Positions 10,148 through 59,130 are shown, counted from the stretch's first letter. The stretch: 64,000 nt of DNA from an uncultured Actinomycetes bacterium (GCA_963708725.1 CAVPTL010000006.1:96226-160225), one strand, 5' to 3'. The notes: generated by a model not told the origin, from the letters alone. Numbers and translations: made by a program.

Positions 10148-10178
10148 GTGAATAACGGTGCCAGGCACCGTTATTCAC
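10148..10178. repeat. REP-like palindromic element, 31-nt subfamily (centre A)
   Basis: GTGAATAACGGTGCCAGGCACCGTTATTCAC is a perfect 15+1+15 palindrome. It lies between the convergent gene ends at 10141 and 10175. Confidence 0.9.
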
Positions 10179-13234: not shown

Positions 13235-15117
13235 GCGGCCAACGCCGCCCGTGCTCGGGCGAGCTTGACCGCGGCCGTCAACGTGGGCAGGTCGTAGGCG
13301 CCGTTGTGGCGCAGCCCGTTGATGAAGAACGTCGGCGTTCCAGAAACCCCGCTCATGTCGGCCGTGTCGACGTCCTCGGAGATACGGCCGACACGGGCGT
13401 GGGTGCGCAGATCTTCGGCAAACCGTTCGCGGTCGAGATCGAGCACATCGGCGTAGCGCAACAGGTCTCGCACCTTGAGGGCATGCTGGTGGTCGAGCAG
13501 GACGTCGTGCATCTCCCAGAACTTGCCCTGCGCCGCAGCCGCCTCGGAGGCTTCCGCCGCCAGCTGTGCGTTGGGATGCACGTCGTTGAGCGGAAGGTGG
13601 CGCCACACATACCGCGCGTCCCCGAAATCGGCCAGCAGGTCGCGTACGACCGACTCGGCCTGGCCACAGAACGGGCACTCGAAATCGCCGTACTCGACCA
13701 CGGTCACCGGGGCGTCGTGAGGCCCGCGGATGTGATCACGATCGGGATCCACATCGGCCGCGAGGTCGATGATGACATCGGCCGAGCCCAGAAGCGCGCG
13801 GATCTGGAGCCGCTTGGGAAGCCTGGCCGTTGCCCGGAAAACGACCCATGTGATCACCGACGAGAGCAACGCTGCGGTCAGGACTCCGAGCTTTGCCTGC
13901 TCGAGCTGCGTCCCGCTGAAGACGAGGGTGGCGATCAGGATCGAGACCGTGAACCCGATCCCGGCAATGGTGCCACCACCGGCGACGGCGGCCCAGCCAA
14001 CCGGCGGCCGTAGCCGACCCCGAGACACCATGGTCACGAGCCACGCCGTGCCGGCGATCCCGACGGGTTTGCCGACCACGTAGCCGACCATGATCCCGAG
14101 TGTGATCGGCGAGGTGAAGGCGCCCGAAAGGAAGCTCCAGTTGAGGACGATTCCTGCGTTGGCCAGGGCGAACAGCGGGACGATCACGTAGCTCGTCCAC
14201 GGGTGAAACTGCTGCTGAAGGCGGACGTTTGGTGAGATCGCCGACCTGACACCCGCGGTCGCGGTGGCCGCGAGCTCCGCGGTTGGCTGCTCTCGGAACT
14301 CCCGGAACAGATCGGAGGCCCGCTCCAGATCCACGCGGGCGGCGGGATAGGCCGAGACGACCAACCCCATCACCAGTCCCACCACCACCGGGTCGACCCC
14401 GGACTGCTCCATGAAAAGCCAGGCGCCGCCCCCGAGGAGGACGTACACCGCGCCGTAGTGGATGCCAAACGATCGGGCGGCCAGGGCAACGGCGAGCACG
14501 ATCACGGCCATCGCCAACTGGGCGGTCTGGATGTGCTCTGCGTAGACGATGGCAATCACGGCCAACGCGACCATGTCGTCGACGATCACCACGGTCAGCA
14601 TGAAGGCCTGGAGCCGGTCCGGGAATGACGGGCCGACCAGCGCGAGCATCCCGAGCGCAAACGCGGTGTCGGTCGACATCGCGGTGCCCCAGCCGTGTGC
14701 AGAGGAGTGCCCGGCGTTGAACAGCAGATAGATCGCGATCGGCACCAGGATCCCGCCGAGCCCTGCCAGCGCCGGAAGCGCCACCCGCCGCCGCTCACGC
14801 AGCTCGCCCATGTCGAACTCGCGACGTGCCTCCAGGCCGACGACGAAGAAGAAGAACGTCATCAGTCCGGCGTTGATCCATTCCTGGAGCTCGAGCGCGA
14901 TGCCGTGATCGCCCACGTGGATCGAGAGCACCGTGTCCCAAAGTGAGTTGTAGGAGGAGCTGTCGATGTTGACCCACGCAAGCGCCGCCAGGGTCGCTGC
15001 GAGCAGCACCGCAGCTCCTCCGGTCTCGGTGCCGAGGAACTCGCGCAGCGGCGTCGGCACGTTACGGGCCCACGCGGTGGTGCCGGCGAGTGTCCGCCCA
15101 TTCGTCGACTCGGCCAT
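13231..15117 (-). CDS. nhaA: Na+/H+ antiporter NhaA fused to a C-terminal DsbA-like thioredoxin domain
   Basis: N-terminus PLREFLGTETGGAAVLLAATLAALAWVN and the following polytopic region are NhaA-like. The C-terminus VTVVEYGDFECPFCGQAE.. is DsbA/thioredoxin-like with CPFC. Start chosen at ATG 15117 (MAESTNGR). Confidence 0.85.
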   Translation of the reverse strand: MAESTNGRTLAGTTAWARNVPTPLREFLGTETGGAAVLLAATLAALAWVNIDSSSYNSLWDTVLSIHVGDHGIALELQEWINAGLMTFFFFVVGLEARREFDMGELRERRRVALPALAGLGGILVPIAIYLLFNAGHSSAHGWGTAMSTDTAFALGMLALVGPSFPDRLQAFMLTVVIVDDMVALAVIAIVYAEHIQTAQLAMAVIVLAVALAARSFGIHYGAVYVLLGGGAWLFMEQSGVDPVVVGLVMGLVVSAYPAARVDLERASDLFREFREQPTAELAATATAGVRSAISPNVRLQQQFHPWTSYVIVPLFALANAGIVLNWSFLSGAFTSPITLGIMVGYVVGKPVGIAGTAWLVTMVSRGRLRPPVGWAAVAGGGTIAGIGFTVSILIATLVFSGTQLEQAKLGVLTAALLSSVITWVVFRATARLPKRLQIRALLGSADVIIDLAADVDPDRDHIRGPHDAPVTVVEYGDFECPFCGQAESVVRDLLADFGDARYVWRHLPLNDVHPNAQLAAEASEAAAAQGKFWEMHDVLLDHQHALKVRDLLRYADVLDLDRERFAEDLRTHARVGRISEDVDTADMSGVSGTPTFFINGLRHNGAYDLPTLTAAVKLARARAALAA

Positions 15118-17917: not shown

Positions 17918-18715
17918 ATGGATCTGGCCGGAGTCCGCGCCCGTTACGACCGTTCACTCATCCGCGAGATCGCCGATGAGCTGATCAGGATCGAGATTGT
18001 CGACCGCGCGCTGGCGCTCGCATCGAAGCTGTTTGTCGCGGTGATCCCGCTGAGCATCATTCTGAGCGCAACCGTCCCGGGTTCTGAATCGTTCGGCGAG
18101 AACCTGGTGTCGCGATTCAGTCTGACCGGAGCCGGGGCGGCGGCCACCCGTTCGCTGTTCGCCACCCGCGGGACGGTGCGCGGTGCGGTCAGCATCATTG
18201 GGCTCGTGATCCTGTTCTACTCGTTGTTCAGCTTCACCCGCGGGCTGCAGCGGGTGTACACCGACATCTGGCGACTCGTCCCTCAGAAGTTCGAGGCGGT
18301 CTTGCGCCGTGCTACCTGGATCGTCGGTTTCGTGATCTACAGCTCGGTGCTCACGCCGATCCAGGACTATGACAAGAACCACCACGTCCCCTATCTGTAC
18401 GCCGGGGCGGCACTCGTGCTGGGGTCGGTGTTTTGGATCTGGACGCCGTACATCCTGCTGGGGCGGCGGGTTCCGTGGAGGCGGCTCCTGCCCACCGGGG
18501 TGATCACCGCGGCGGGGATCGCGCTGTATACGATCGGCTCGTCGCTCTATCTGCCGACGATCTTCACCCACAACGCCGAGCGGTACGGCACCATCGGGAT
18601 CGCCTTCGGCCTGGTCACCTGGCTGTTCGCCTACGCCGGCGTGGCGATCGCCTGCGCCGTGGTGGCGCATAGCTGGGATATCCACCACAACCGCCACCTC
18701 TACCCAGATGAATGA
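17918..18715 (+). CDS. YihY/BrkB-family membrane protein
   Basis: 265 aa, polytopic, with ..FYSLFSFTRGLQRVYTDIW.. typical of the YihY/virulence factor BrkB family. Confidence 0.6.
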   Translation: MDLAGVRARYDRSLIREIADELIRIEIVDRALALASKLFVAVIPLSIILSATVPGSESFGENLVSRFSLTGAGAAATRSLFATRGTVRGAVSIIGLVILFYSLFSFTRGLQRVYTDIWRLVPQKFEAVLRRATWIVGFVIYSSVLTPIQDYDKNHHVPYLYAGAALVLGSVFWIWTPYILLGRRVPWRRLLPTGVITAAGIALYTIGSSLYLPTIFTHNAERYGTIGIAFGLVTWLFAYAGVAIACAVVAHSWDIHHNRHLYPDE

Positions 18716-18893
18716 CCCATCTCCCCGCCGGCTGCTCTGTTGCGGCTGGCCCGCGGGTGGTGTGGCGGCGTCCCACGCGACGTGCGGTGCTCAACGTGCC
18801 TTCTAGGCACGCCTGCGCTCCGCTCGTCGCTCGATCCTTGCCACACCACCCGCGTTCTGCGCCTCACAGACGAGCAGCCGGCGGGGAGATGGG
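18716..18893. repeat. 178-nt long imperfect palindrome (nested inverted repeats) adjacent to a REP copy
   Basis: Outer arms CCCATCTCCCCGCCGGCTGCTC (18716-18737) and GAGCAGCCGGCGGGGAGATGGG (18872-18893) are a perfect 22-bp pair. Inner arms: CGCGGGTGGTGTGGC (18751-18765) pairs perfectly, 15 bp, with GCCACACCACCCGCG (18840-18854). The centre is GTGCC-TTCTA-GGCAC (18796-18810). Confidence 0.8.
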
Positions 18894-18895
18894 TC

Positions 18896-18928
18896 GTGAA
18901 TAAATGGTGCCAGGCACCATTTATTCAC
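18896..18928. repeat. REP-like palindromic element, 33-nt subfamily (centre A), 3' flank of RAYT pseudogene
   Basis: GTGAATAAATGGTGCCAGGCACCATTTATTCAC is a perfect 16+1+16 palindrome. It overlaps the last 8 nt of the RAYT ORF. Confidence 0.9.
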
Positions 18929-19596
18929 GGAGGCGGCGGACGACTGTTGATTGACTGACTCCGAGCTCTGCCGCGATCTCGTGCTGGGTGTAACCGTGTG
19001 CGATAGCGAGCCGAAGTTTGTTGCTGCGCACGAGATCGGCCAGCGGCGGGCGCTCGGGAAGGTCTCTGCCCTCGGCCACGAATTCGCGGTAGCGGTCGCT
19101 GGATCCGTCGAAATACTCAAGCGCCGAGTCGCGGTCAAGCGCCGGGTGTGCCGGGCCAAGCCCCGCGAGCGCCGCGTGGGCAGACCACGGCCAGCGATCG
19201 TGGTCTGCCACGAGTCCCGCCCGCCACGGGTTGAGGGCGATGTAGCGAAACGTCTGGGTGAGATGCTCGTCGTACTCGATCACCTTGGCGTAATAGCGGT
19301 CGCCGAAGAGGTGGCCGGCGCGGTCGTGCAACGCGTTGAACCGATGCGAGTGCGTCGTCCCGATCGCATGCATCCCGAGTGCCAGATTCCTGGCCCGCGA
19401 CGCACGCAGCATGTGGATGTGGTTGCGTGAGCAGGCAGTACGAGAGCAGCCGCCAATTAGCAGCTGCCCGGCGTGACCCATGAGGCGAGAAACGACCGCC
19501 GGTCATGGTCATCGACGAACGACGGGGATGCCGTCGTTCCCGCGCAGGGTGACGTGGTGCAGGGACCGGGTTCCTGACGTCGCGCGGCCGAGGCAT
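18921..19596 (-). pseudogene. REP-associated tyrosine transposase (RAYT; IS200-like Y1/HUH transposase), disrupted by frameshifts and in-frame stops
   Basis: ORF 18921..19481 carries NHIHML (HUH) and GHLFGDRYYAKVIEYDEHLTQTFRYIALNPWRAGLV. The upstream motifs MPRPRDVRNP, SLHHVTLRGN, FVDDHDRRSFL and LLSYCLL are present but split over all three frames. Two in-frame TGA codons lie at 19503-05 and 19509-11. Confidence 0.75.
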
Positions 19597-19665
19597 GGCA
19601 CCACAATAGGTGCCCGCATCGAAGAAGTCCCCGCAAATGTCAACAAACTGCACCGAGTCACACCC

Positions 19666-19697
19666 ATGAAGAAATGGAGCCTGGCACATCTATTCAT
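19666..19697. repeat. Degenerate REP-like element (33-nt subfamily, centre T), 5' flank of RAYT pseudogene
   Basis: ATGAAGAAATGGAGCCTGGCACATCTATTCAT differs from the 33-nt consensus GTGAATAAATGGTGCCTGGCACCATTTATTCAC by about six substitutions and one deletion. It overlaps the stop of the APH-like gene. Confidence 0.6.
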
Positions 19698-20628
19698 GCA
19701 GGAGGGAGTCGATCAGGGTGCGGGTGAGGGGGCGTTCGACGAACTCGGATACTCGGTCCACGGTGTGGTCGCGTTCCGCATCCGAGAGCGTGGGGTCGAG
19801 CCAGTCGGCGCAGGAGATCTCGAGGATGTGCCCCAGCTGGGCAATCGTCATTGAGAAGCTGCCGCGGCCGGAGATGCGGCCGCTGCCGCCAGCGTCGGAG
19901 TAGCTGCGAACAAGCGCCCGAGCGCGATCGGCGTCGCCGGTTGCGAACTCGAACAGCGCGTTTGCCAGCTCGTGCGATGGGTCGGCCGCTCCGCAGTTGT
20001 CCCAGTCGATCACACACAGCCCGCCGTCGGCCGTGAGTCGCAGATTGTCGGCCCACAGGTCGCGATGGCAGGTGCGAAGCGCGGCCGCCGGCTCGATCCA
20101 TGCCTCCAGCGCCACCAACTCGTCGCGCATTGCCGCCAACTCCGCTGCAAACGGAGCTCCACCAGCGGTCAGGTCTGCCACCAGCTCGTCCCAGCGAGCC
20201 GCTCCGACCGGCTCTGTGTACCACGGATCCTCGCCTCGGCTGCCTTCGAACGCCACGCAGTGGAGCTTCGCCAAAAGCGCCCCGACCGCGGCCGGATCGA
20301 GCCCCACGTCGGGCTCGTTCATCTCGACCCACTCGTGCACTCTCACCTGGGTGTCGCCGACCGCCGCGATCACATCACCCGCGGCCGTTCGCACCGCCCT
20401 TGGGGTGGGCACGCCCGCCAGCCGGGCCGCTTCCTGGAAGTCGGTATCCTCACGCACCTCGTCCTCGGTCTGAGGTTCGAACGGTTCTCGCACGGCCCAC
20501 GATCCGCGTGAGGATTCGAGTCGCCAGATCTGGCCCTGCTCGCCGCGGGCAACGGGACCCTCGAACTGCTGCGGGTCACCGAGCCCAAAAGCGCGCGCGA
20601 TCTCGGCGGCGGCGTGAGGTTCCAGCAT
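19690..20628 (-). CDS. Aminoglycoside phosphotransferase (APH)/protein-kinase-like family protein
   Basis: ..CHRDLWADNLRLTADGGLCVIDWDNCGAADPSHELA.. is the Brenner/HxDxxxxN plus DxD catalytic loop of APH-type kinases. Confidence 0.8.
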   Translation of the reverse strand: MLEPHAAAEIARAFGLGDPQQFEGPVARGEQGQIWRLESSRGSWAVREPFEPQTEDEVREDTDFQEAARLAGVPTPRAVRTAAGDVIAAVGDTQVRVHEWVEMNEPDVGLDPAAVGALLAKLHCVAFEGSRGEDPWYTEPVGAARWDELVADLTAGGAPFAAELAAMRDELVALEAWIEPAAALRTCHRDLWADNLRLTADGGLCVIDWDNCGAADPSHELANALFEFATGDADRARALVRSYSDAGGSGRISGRGSFSMTIAQLGHILEISCADWLDPTLSDAERDHTVDRVSEFVERPLTRTLIDSLLHE

Positions 20629-21028: not shown

Positions 21029-21521
21029 CTATCGATCGAGTGCGGAGCCGGTCTCGAGCAGCGTCTTGAGGTCGCTCAGAATCCAGGCCCAGCCGCCGCC
21101 GGCGTCGGCATCCTCACCCGAGGTCACGCGCGCCGTGGCCGGTGCGTCGGTCAGTTCGTGGACGACGGTCAGCTTGGAGATGCCGTCCCCGGCCTCGGTG
21201 ATCTCCCACGTGAGCCGGGTCGCGGGCTCGGCCGACATCACGTCGTCGAACAACGCATGCCAGGTCTGCACCAGCCGGTGCGGAGGGTCGGATTCGAGCA
21301 CTTCGCCCTCCACGATGACGTTGGGCGAGCCGTACTCGGTCATCGCCTGCCGATGCAAACACCCGGTAGGCGCCGCCGGGTCGCAGGTCATATTCGGTCG
21401 GCGCCCGATAGCCATACCTCTCCGACCAGTCGCGGGCGGTGATCGCCTCCCAGATCCGCTCCGGGGTGGCCTTGATCCACACCTGATAGACGCGGGTGGT
21501 GGTGTCGGTGGTGGTGCTCAT
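21029..21521 (-). pseudogene. SRPBCC/AHSA1-domain protein with a single frameshift
   Basis: The N-terminal half MSTTTDTTTRVYQVWIKATPERIWEAIT..DLRPGGAYRVFASA is in the frame of ORF 21114..21593. The C-terminal half ..AMTEYGSPNVIVEGEVLESDPPHRLVQTW.. is in the frame of ORF 21029..21415. The switch lies near 21330-21365. The start ATG at 21521 has GGAGGA upstream and overlaps the ArsR stop. Confidence 0.7.
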
Positions 21522-21868
21522 GCCTTGTCCTCCAAATCGTGTTTGAGATCGAGCAGCGCTGAGACACGCCGCTCGGTGTACTTGTCGATCCACCGATCGT
21601 GGATCTGCCGAATCGGGACCGGGTTGAGGTAGTGCAGCTTCTCCCGGCCCGACCGGCGGGCGACGACCAAGCCCGCGGCTTCGAGCACCTTCAGATGCTT
21701 CATCACGCCAAACCGTGTCATGTCCAGCTCGGATTCCAGCTCGCTGAGCGTTCGGCCGTCACGCTCGAAGAGCAGGTCGAGAAGGAACCGACGGTTGGGG
21801 TCAGCGAGGGCTTTGAATGCCAGGTCGTCGTCGGTCATGGCCTCCACTATAGGTGACCTTATGGTCAC
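21518..21868 (-). CDS. ArsR-family transcriptional regulator
   Basis: ..FKALADPNRRFLLDLL..RTLSELESELDMTRFGVMKHLKVLEAAGLV..RSGREKLHYLNP.. is an ArsR signature. The GTG start at 21868 overlaps the upstream gene's stop (GTGA). An alternative ATG lies at 21838. Confidence 0.8.
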   Translation of the reverse strand: MTIRSPIVEAMTDDDLAFKALADPNRRFLLDLLFERDGRTLSELESELDMTRFGVMKHLKVLEAAGLVVARRSGREKLHYLNPVPIRQIHDRWIDKYTERRVSALLDLKHDLEDKA

Positions 21869-32325: not shown

Positions 32326-32356
32326 GTGAATAACGGTGCCAGGCACCGTTATTCAC
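32326..32356. repeat. REP-like palindromic element, 31-nt subfamily (centre A)
   Basis: GTGAATAACGGTGCCAGGCACCGTTATTCAC. The palindrome extends 3 nt further on each side (TTG...CAA). Confidence 0.9.
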
Positions 32357-36719: not shown

Positions 36720-37559
36720 ATGGAGAGCCCTGCATGGGAGTGGGACGAGACGCTGTTTGCCGGAAGCGCCGCCTACTACGCTCGCGGTCGCCTTCCCTAC
36801 CCGCCGACGATGGTGGATGCAGCCCGCGACGCGCTGGGACTCGACGGGTCCGGGCGGCTGTTGGACGTCGGCTGTGGCCCGGGGCTGGTGGGCCTGCTGC
36901 TGGCCGGGTTGTTCGCCGAGGTGGTGGGGGTGGACGCTGACCCCGCGATGGTCGCCGAAGCCGAGCACCAAGCCGCGATCCGCGGGCTCGCGCACACCCG
37001 TTGGCTCAATCTCCGGGCCGAGGCGCTGCCGGCGGGCCTCGGGACGTTTCGGGTTGCGAGCTTTGGCCGGTCGTTTCACTGGATGGATCGTCCCCGCGTG
37101 GCGGCGTTGGTGGGCGAGATGCTGGAGCCTGGTGGCGCATGGCTGCATGTGAGCGCCCCGATCGCGCGCGAGGCCGACCCCTCCGACAAGTTGCCGGCGC
37201 CGGCACCGCCGCGCGAGGCGATCTCCGAGCTCGTTCGGGGCTACCTCGGCCCCGACCGGCGGGCGGGCCAGGGAGTGCTTCCCGGCGGAACGCGGTCTGG
37301 GGAGGAGGGCGTGATGGTGAAGGCCGGTTTCAAGGGGCCCAAACGCGTGCCGGCGGGAGGTGGCGAGGTTTTCGACCGCTCCGAAGACGACATCGTGGCA
37401 CTCGTGTTTTCGCTCTCCTCGTCGGCGCCCCACCTGTTTGGCGAGCGTCTCGGTGAGTTCGAAGCCGACCTTCGCAAGCTCCTGCGCCTGACCTCACCGT
37501 CCGGCCGCTTCAGCGAACGCCAACGCCCCATCGAACTGGTCATCTGGACCCGTGAATAA
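36720..37559 (+). CDS. Class I SAM-dependent methyltransferase
   Basis: ..RLLDVGCGPGLVGLLLAGLFAEVVGVDADPAMV.. is SAM motif I. Start set at ATG 36720 (MESPAWEW). The last two codons and the TAA stop lie inside a REP copy. Confidence 0.75.
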   Translation: MESPAWEWDETLFAGSAAYYARGRLPYPPTMVDAARDALGLDGSGRLLDVGCGPGLVGLLLAGLFAEVVGVDADPAMVAEAEHQAAIRGLAHTRWLNLRAEALPAGLGTFRVASFGRSFHWMDRPRVAALVGEMLEPGGAWLHVSAPIAREADPSDKLPAPAPPREAISELVRGYLGPDRRAGQGVLPGGTRSGEEGVMVKAGFKGPKRVPAGGGEVFDRSEDDIVALVFSLSSSAPHLFGERLGEFEADLRKLLRLTSPSGRFSERQRPIELVIWTRE

Positions 37560-37584
37560 ATGGTGCCTGGCACCATTTATTCAG
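37552..37584. repeat. REP-like palindromic element, 33-nt subfamily (centre T)
   Basis: GTGAATAAATGGTGCCTGGCACCATTTATTCAG. The last base is G instead of C. It lies between the convergent gene ends at 37559 and 37660. Confidence 0.9.
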
Positions 37585-56858: not shown

Positions 56859-57293
56859 ATGTTGACCAATCGTTCGGCACCTCCCGCGACTGTGACGCCG
56901 GTGCTCGTCTACCCCGACGTGCGCGCCGCGGTGGCGTGGCTCGAGGCGGCCTTCGGGTTCGAGGAGCGAGTGCGCATCGGCGACGCGCACCGCGCACAGC
57001 TACGGATCAATCCCGACGCGGCGCTGGTCGTCGCCGACGTACACGGCGCCCAGGTCGCGCCGACCGCGGGCGTCGTGACTCACATTCTCAAACTGCGCGT
57101 CGCCGATGTTGATGCCGCGGTCGCCCGCGCAACCGGTCATGGGGCGCGGATCGTGAGCGAGCTCGAGACGCACGTGTACGGCGAGCGCTCGTGCATGGTC
57201 GAGGATGTCGGCGGTCACCGGTGGGAGTTGAGTCAGACCGTGCGCGACGTCGAACCCGAGGAGTGGGGCGGTGTCAGCACCGGCCAGTGGTGA
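56859..57293 (+). CDS. VOC-family (glyoxalase/bleomycin-resistance) protein
   Basis: 144 aa. ..VTPVLVYPDVRAAVAWLEAAFGF.. and ..CMVEDVGGHRWELSQ.. are VOC motifs. The TGA stop lies inside a REP copy. Confidence 0.8.
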   Translation: MLTNRSAPPATVTPVLVYPDVRAAVAWLEAAFGFEERVRIGDAHRAQLRINPDAALVVADVHGAQVAPTAGVVTHILKLRVADVDAAVARATGHGARIVSELETHVYGERSCMVEDVGGHRWELSQTVRDVEPEEWGGVSTGQW

Positions 57294-57320
57294 ATAACGG
57301 TGCCAGGCACCGGTATTCAC
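57290..57320. repeat. REP-like palindromic element, 31-nt subfamily (centre A), one arm mismatch
   Basis: GTGAATAACGGTGCCAGGCACCGGTATTCAC (GGT instead of GTT in the right arm). It fills the gap between the convergent gene ends at 57293 and 57322. Confidence 0.9.
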
Positions 57321-59099: not shown

Positions 59100-59130
59100 G
59101 TGAATAACGGTGCCTGGCACCGTTATTCAC
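59100..59130. repeat. REP-like palindromic element, 31-nt subfamily (centre T)
   Basis: GTGAATAACGGTGCCTGGCACCGTTATTCAC is a perfect palindrome. It lies in the divergent intergenic region between the starts at 59072 and 59158. Confidence 0.9.

Follow-up and report, generated by a model that had tools for sequence, protein, structure and literature searches.

Does a frameshifted transposase gene, lying between two inverted copies of a palindrome in an uncultured soil actinomycete, mean that a family of dispersed repeats has lost its enzyme and become a fossil, or is the gene broken only in the sequence as assembled? The original prediction, made on the window (by which we mean the whole 64,000-nucleotide stretch analysed here), favoured the first answer. 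We favour the second, and would put at roughly 60 % the probability that the RAYT/REP system is live and that the breakage of this copy is a consensus artefact.

The gene itself is as it had been described. It encodes a RAYT-family protein (Y1/HUH transposase domain plus C-terminal HTH) and runs on the minus strand, between the two REP copies, from an ATG at 19596-19594 to a TAA at 18923-18921 (18921-19596 overall). Its opening MPRPRDVRNP is in frame 1, followed by SLHHVTLRGN in frame 2, FVDDHDRRSFL in frame 0 and LLSYCLL in frame 1 again, so that the N-terminal motifs are indeed scattered over all three frames. The HUH motif NHIHML (19424-19407) and the block HLFGDRYYAKV..FRYIALNPWRAGLV are, as stated originally, in one frame (frame 2), which is open for 186 aa (18921-19481) up to the TAA and which contains the H-I-H codons (19421-19413), the catalytic Tyr codon (19244-19242, within RYIALNPWRAG) and the HTH (about 18924-19013); the two TGA codons at 19509-11 and 19503-05 belong to this HUH frame. 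Alignment to the intact allele of 225 aa found at the same locus on contig L007, which is 99.6 % identical to the window and served as reference for all lesions, places eight 1-nt indels in codons 5-70, at window positions 19585, 19566, 19521, 19487, 19462, 19426, 19406 and 19390 (net -2), and from Gly75 (...LALGMHAIG) to the C-terminus the two proteins are the same. By tblastn with intact homologues, this is the single RAYT copy in the 64-kb window.

The protein belongs to the Y1 family. Pfam Y1_Tnp (cut-off 23 bits) scores 25.5 bits against the frame-corrected window protein and 32.4 bits against the L007 allele. The NCBIfam model REP_Tyr_transpos (NF047646) gives about 68 bits (68.4, E 6e-19) with the reconstruction, which also shows the C-terminal sigma-70-region-4-like HTH, and the model gives 73.5 bits (E 1.6e-20) with the intact allele and 64-68 bits with the paralogues, all under the equivalog cut-off of 80. 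The intact homologues recovered by a protein search are 203-243 aa long and 50-87 % identical; an alignment of 20 homologues shows no variation at N59, H60 and H62 (the HUH motif), N123, P124, R126 and A127, and almost none at R118, Y119 and G128. A search of the PDB with the single sequence gave no match; with the family profile the top match is the E. coli TnpA-REP (RAYT, YafM; 4ER8, E 3e-6), with the HUH motif and the YxxxNP block aligned and with NHIHML and RYIALNP of the window facing HMH and YIYINP of 4ER8. The same structure comes first by fold: an AlphaFold model of the intact allele (pLDDT 90) retrieves 4ER8_A as best Foldseek match (E 1.2e-6, TM 0.68), above the IS608 and ISDra2 TnpA structures, second-tier matches with the same fold and catalytic residues. 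The RAYT-specific traits listed by Nunvar et al. 2010 (PMC2817692) are NP(L/V)(R/K)xG beside the tyrosine and a conserved N-terminal Thr. The E. coli enzyme and the present one share the HUH motif and the nucleophilic Tyr in a YxxxNPxRxG block; they differ in that the RAYT clade found here has NPWRAG, with W at the L/V position. In alignment A3, the more distant members have NPVRAG and most sequences have HVT.

The palindromes are also where they had been placed, although only one of them is undamaged. The 3' REP (18896-18928) is a perfect 16+1+16 palindrome, GTGAATAAATGGTGCC-A-GGCACCATTTATTCAC, which folds as single-stranded DNA at -17.6 kcal/mol (z -9.2) and whose right arm holds the RAYT stop codon. 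The 5' REP (19666-19697) matches the 22-nt left-arm-plus-core pattern with 3 mismatches; it is inverted relative to the 3' copy, because its centre is T rather than A on the plus strand, and it contains the TAG (19692-19690) with which the upstream APH-family gene ends. In the window it carries three substitutions and one deletion and no longer folds (z -0.3), whereas it is perfect in L007, L004, L038 and L046. A further copy, at 37552-37584, overlaps the stop codon of a plus-strand ORF and brings this type (AAATGG) to three copies in the window, for a pattern met 0 times in 100 shuffles, and the 29-nt core occurs in at least 19 exact copies at separate loci of the MAG MFD02134.bin.1.51 (uncultured Actinomycetes), and also in a second MAG. 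In L007, L002, L011 and L047 both flanking REPs are perfect and in the same orientation (sense-strand centre A upstream, T downstream), and the last codon and stop (GAA TAA) fall inside the downstream REP wherever an intact gene was inspected. The canonical RAYT arrangement that had been invoked to link repeat and enzyme is borne out. A search for sigma-70 promoters and intrinsic terminators at the REPs found none, and Rfam returned nothing at gathering score for the REPs or for the 182-nt hairpin discussed below (one generic miRNA-hairpin match, 35 bits against a cut-off of 168).

These data support the identification of a RAYT-type Y1/HUH gene that has on each side a copy of a dispersed palindromic repeat, the two copies being inverted relative to each other. 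Judged on sequence, the locus qualifies as a REPtron as Nunvar et al. 2010 and Ton-Hoang et al. 2012 use the term, since the intact allele matches both Y1_Tnp and TnpA-REP and the palindrome is dispersed. By analogy with E. coli TnpA-REP, a dimeric RAYT would bind the REP hairpin on single-stranded DNA and would cut beside it through a covalent tyrosine-DNA intermediate, a cleavage that would spread or rearrange REPs.

Is this enzyme really inactivated in the population? At least eight syntenic contigs, most of them from Microflora Danica ENA assemblies, were retrieved via the neighbouring proteins; they are 99.3-99.8 % identical to the window and have the same RAYT neighbours, APH and BrkB. 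The gene is fully intact in L007, open over its N-terminal 160 codons in L038 (where a +1 frameshift follows nearer the 3' end) and, in L046, which comes from an independent JGI metagenome, open for the 195 codons that precede the end of the contig. The open alleles differ from each other mainly by synonymous changes (five synonymous and no non-synonymous between L007 and L038), with a mildly raised synonymous diversity among clean alleles in the N-terminal third (codons 1-72), and dN/dS is 0.10 against the L002 orthologue. Outside the damaged interval, the window differs from its relatives by about one substitution per 200 nt, with three indels in 10.4 kb relative to L001.

Some of the differences outside this interval deserve a remark of their own. 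A window-private +1 T at about 21348 splits an AHSA1/SRPBCC-family gene, intact with 163 aa in five relatives (L003-L007), into overlapping minus-strand ORFs (21029-21415 and 21114-21593), and single- or double-base indels relative to L001 also occur at 14431 and 16413; as far as such comparisons go, these private indels suggest sporadic indel errors in the window assembly.

The damage to the RAYT gene is not distributed as decay would distribute it. It is confined to a hot spot at 19386-19700, which covers codons 1-71, the 5' UTR and the 5' REP and holds 11 indel events and 12 substitutions relative to L007; the indels, in a ratio of about 1:1 to substitutions, are single-base with a deletion bias. 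The lesions are nearly all private to the window by comparison with L007, L038, L046 and the other relatives. In the same interval, L003 and L005 have private indels of their own, different ones, and L004 has one.

This interval coincides with a structural variant. In L006 and L041 (and, noisily, in L008) the segment 19378-19690, which starts at the APH stop codon and ends immediately before GMH, is replaced by a variant REP and a copy of a long-hairpin element of about 180 nt; we call this arrangement haplotype B, and in L006 and L041 it removes RAYT codons 1 to about 72. Real loss of the RAYT gene occurs by this haplotype-B deletion and not by the frameshifts seen in the window. The Microflora Danica long-read assemblies are Nanopore-only, made with Flye --meta and one Medaka round from soils of high microdiversity (PMC12313526), the window's own platform being deduced only from its 99.3-99.8 % identity to these contigs. 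We propose that the sampled population holds two haplotypes, A, in which the gene is complete, and B, in which the hairpin element takes the place of the N-terminus, and that a Nanopore metagenome assembler would keep the A branch of the A/B bubble and polish it from few or mixed reads. Poor polishing would leave errors resembling those of raw reads strictly inside the bubble, in which case the eight frameshifts and the damaged 5' REP would be consensus errors, and the gene in the real genome would probably be intact (A) or deleted (B) rather than riddled with frameshifts. L008 is a fine-scale A/B mosaic, the pattern that mixed-read polishing produces. A k-mer test for leakage of haplotype B into the hot spot was significant for L003 and L008 and not for L004, L005 or the window itself (2.2 % against 0.8±1.1 %), so that direct leakage into the window consensus is without positive support.

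The main alternative is that of a genuine and very recent pseudogene, in which a burst of small indels and substitutions struck the first 70 codons and the 5' REP. It takes the lesions as they stand in the given sequence, RAYT genes are dispensable, and the population is losing the locus by haplotype B in L006 and L041; moreover, a few hot-spot variants (GA--TGCG, AATAG and GCGGGAAC) are common to the window and L005 or L004 and are probably real, because they are shared between independent assemblies. Neutral decay should, however, affect the whole gene, and 23 of the 24 differences from L007 are found within 315 of 805 nt (39 %), against a single synonymous substitution in the 490 nt that make up the rest of the gene (binomial p = 6.4e-9 for uniform decay). 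Flanks that differ by about 0.4 % leave no time for a divergence of about 7 %, lesions that are private are not inherited ones, and the three other contigs named above are open across the interval. The ratio of indels to substitutions does not help this explanation either, a 1:1 ratio being atypical of bacterial pseudogene decay. Lesions both spread along the gene and inherited, as expected of an evolutionary pseudogene, are not what we find. Given that near-identical genomes carry the gene intact, a local assembly error is likelier than decay, and we regard genuine decay as unlikely, at something like one chance in five. Of the earlier claim that the enzyme is inactivated, what stands is that the copy as written is disrupted; that it has decayed in evolution does not follow, with open alleles at the same locus and a hot spot located where Nanopore-only assemblies from this population show a structural variant.

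Two other origins for a divergent but real allele fare poorly. Gene conversion from an intact paralogue was rejected, as it cannot make frameshifts, and import of a diverged, already decayed allele by recombination is unlikely, as the flanks stay free of any corresponding divergence as far as the limits of the interval.

A more doubtful alternative takes the hot spot as real but mechanistic: the RAYT would nick its own 5' REP and so prime repair or error-prone synthesis into the first 300 nt or so of its gene, and the first 315 nt or so and the 5' REP would have a mutation rate at least 20 times that of the flanks and of the remaining gene. Nunvar et al. 2010 noted that rayt genes evolve faster than their neighbours and hypothesised REP-primed synthesis (PMC2817692). 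The hot spot does begin at the 5' REP and extends about 315 nt into the gene, independent lesions occupy the same interval in several contigs, the synonymous diversity of open alleles is concentrated in codons 1-72, and the changes favour sense-strand A, a bias that lies outside the predictions of our artefact model. Against this, the paralogous RAYT locus in the same genomes and samples has neither a structural polymorphism nor an N-terminal hot spot, the inner boundary of the hot spot is the haplotype-B breakpoint, a coincidence not expected from hypermutation, the alleles with most noise belong to contigs or samples that are noisier overall (L008, L044), and the independent JGI contig is clean. 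We consider both the mechanism and the elevated rate improbable. If they were true, one would expect a population in which many alleles have been broken independently and selection maintains intact ones next to them, and a real cluster would provide, for the first time at the population level, evidence that rayt genes mutate themselves by REP-primed synthesis. We have left some weight on this explanation and on the pseudogene because of the null k-mer test, the shared variants, the N-terminal synonymous diversity and the A bias.

The bias itself is as follows: of the 22 base changes that separate the hot spot from L007, 11 fall on a sense-strand A, a base with a share of 18 % (binomial p 6e-4), and they take the form of A>G, A>T, A>C or loss of the A. 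Such a bias brought to mind a diversity-generating retroelement, which was rejected: neither a reverse transcriptase signal nor a template repeat for the hot spot was found, the window contains no template copy of it, and indels are not a signature of these elements.

Consensus error remains our preferred explanation of the broken reading frame, and it bears on how such data should be read more generally, since a dense cluster of frameshifts limited to a structurally polymorphic interval of a long-read metagenome assembly should be taken neither for gene decay nor as a basis for declaring a repeat family extinct.

The suggestion that the REP family is a fossil unless another RAYT exists finds no support in the paralogues. 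At least one further intact RAYT is present in the species, P0006, a protein of 230 aa that is 56 % identical to the present one and is encoded about 220 kb away on the 2.6-Mb contig of L006. Each RAYT lineage is flanked by its own REP: the AAATGG/CCATTT variant flanks the window gene and P0002, AACGG/CCGTT flanks P0006 (on L011), and AAAAGG/CCTTTT, which also occurs in L025 and L031, flanks P0003 (L047). The three variants differ by compensatory changes in the stem, so that repeat and enzyme co-vary. The second subfamily, GTGAATAACGGTGCC-W-GGCACCGTTATTCAC (the AACGG type, cognate to the intact P0006), has four copies in the window (10148-10178, 32326-32356, 57290-57320 and 59100-59130) and is commoner there than the AAATGG type with its three. 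With open alleles of the window gene circulating under purifying selection, a co-varying REP for each paralogue and abundant REPs, the RAYT/REP system looks alive in this population, as far as genome comparison can tell.

How does this unit compare with those already known? The kind of element is already known; the host is new, and the variations are minor. The arrangement of one gene bracketed by two inverted dispersed palindromes, and a co-varying REP variant for each RAYT paralogue, are those of the REPtrons (Nunvar 2010; Ton-Hoang 2012; Messing 2012). Relative to E. coli TnpA-REP, the protein is about 60 residues longer and has a C-terminal sigma-70-region-4-like HTH, and its host is an uncultured high-GC actinomycete. 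Unlike canonical REPs, the repeat is a perfect, AT-rich palindrome with a 16-bp stem, it begins (C)GTGAATAA and has no GTAG tetranucleotide in or beside any of the approximately 35 copies listed, and at the loci seen it is mostly solitary rather than arranged in BIME or REPIN doublets. The combination of a Y1 domain and a C-terminal DNA-binding HTH recalls the long Y1 transposases of the COG1943 type ('REP element-mobilizing transposase RayT') and possibly the TIRYT class of Di Nocera 2013 (PMC3733652). P0002 is called 'RayT' in JGI naming, and more distant homologues have PF08299 (the DnaA C-terminal domain) at the HTH position. Those proteins are, however, of about 290-340 aa, against 225 here, with a DnaA_C-like rather than a sigma-70 r4-like HTH, and they are flanked by long terminal inverted repeats, in place of the short hairpin REPs that abound in the present genome.

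The weakest alternative, an autonomous IS200/IS605-type insertion sequence whose own ends would be the palindromes, rather than a domesticated RAYT, has in its favour the Pfam Y1_Tnp match, the score under the NCBIfam RAYT equivalog cut-off and a genomic context that varies by species (L002, L011 and L047 against the window), but we hold it to be very improbable, because the gene is single-copy (one per 64 kb, with within-genome paralogues just 56 % identical) at a locus fixed between APH and BrkB in at least eight contigs, and its flanks are identical to solitary dispersed REPs (the same palindrome at both ends, found at least 19 times without the gene, in place of distinct LE and RE hairpins), to which one may add that it has no TnpB partner and that its closest structure is TnpA-REP.

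RAYT/REP units being already well described, the present RAYT matters little in itself, beyond extending these units to a soil actinomycete, uncultured, whose enzyme bears an HTH and whose REPs are perfectly palindromic and of a non-GTAG kind. A more original lead may be the mobile hairpin of about 180 nt that repeatedly lands in REPs. In the window, this 182-nt element (18714-18895) interrupts the 3' REP within its left arm and is bordered at either end by (A/G)TGAAT; it has 24-nt perfect terminal arms and folds as single-stranded DNA at -96.9 kcal/mol (z -12.4). Further occurrences of the element or its core are in L006 (4323-4500), L041 (1320-1497), L017 (3268-3385) and L033-L037, and the element is present or absent among contigs that are 99.5 % identical. 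The copy that replaces the RAYT N-terminus in haplotype B shows compensatory changes in its arms, and in three independent contexts the element lies inside REP arms. It is possibly MITE-like, with REPs either as its targets or as partners in its mobilisation. A search of JGI metagenomes for the exact 24-nt arm gave 0 matches; the pattern of the conserved core matched five times, in unrelated JGI soil-metagenome contigs with different terminal inverted repeats.

Some details of these insertions are worth recording. The B allele (L006 4268-4500, L041 1320-1535) is more than allele A with a segment removed: besides a fourth REP variant, AATTGG/CCAATT, it has some 26 nt of unrelated sequence (TGCACGCATCGGACATCGGGATCGGG) fused to RAYT codon 73 or thereabouts, and its 150-aa C-terminal remnant (P0122) is found on four contigs, the most of any allele in the protein cluster. 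In L017 (3231-3425), a hairpin core has on either side one copy of a duplicated 27-nt segment (gcgtcggtcGTGAATAACGGTGCCAGG), in which half a REP and the adjoining flank are included; as a footprint of transposition, this duplication is unusually long.

The REP arms, which contain both TGA and TAA, supply stop codons to neighbouring genes at 18708-18715, 18921-18928, 19690-19697 and 37557-37559, which is partly what one expects of any AT-rich motif in a genome of 68 % GC. Where the hairpin is absent, the RAYT gene and the BrkB-family gene, which converge, each end in GAA TAA in opposite arms of one palindrome; where it is inserted, the BrkB protein is unchanged and its gene ends in GAA TGA. Finally, the unpaired base at the centre of the 5' REP, read on the sense strand, is T in L038 (about 1413) and A in L007 (about 4582), L004 and L046, so that between the otherwise near-identical alleles of L038 and L007 the sole asymmetric position of the palindrome is flipped.
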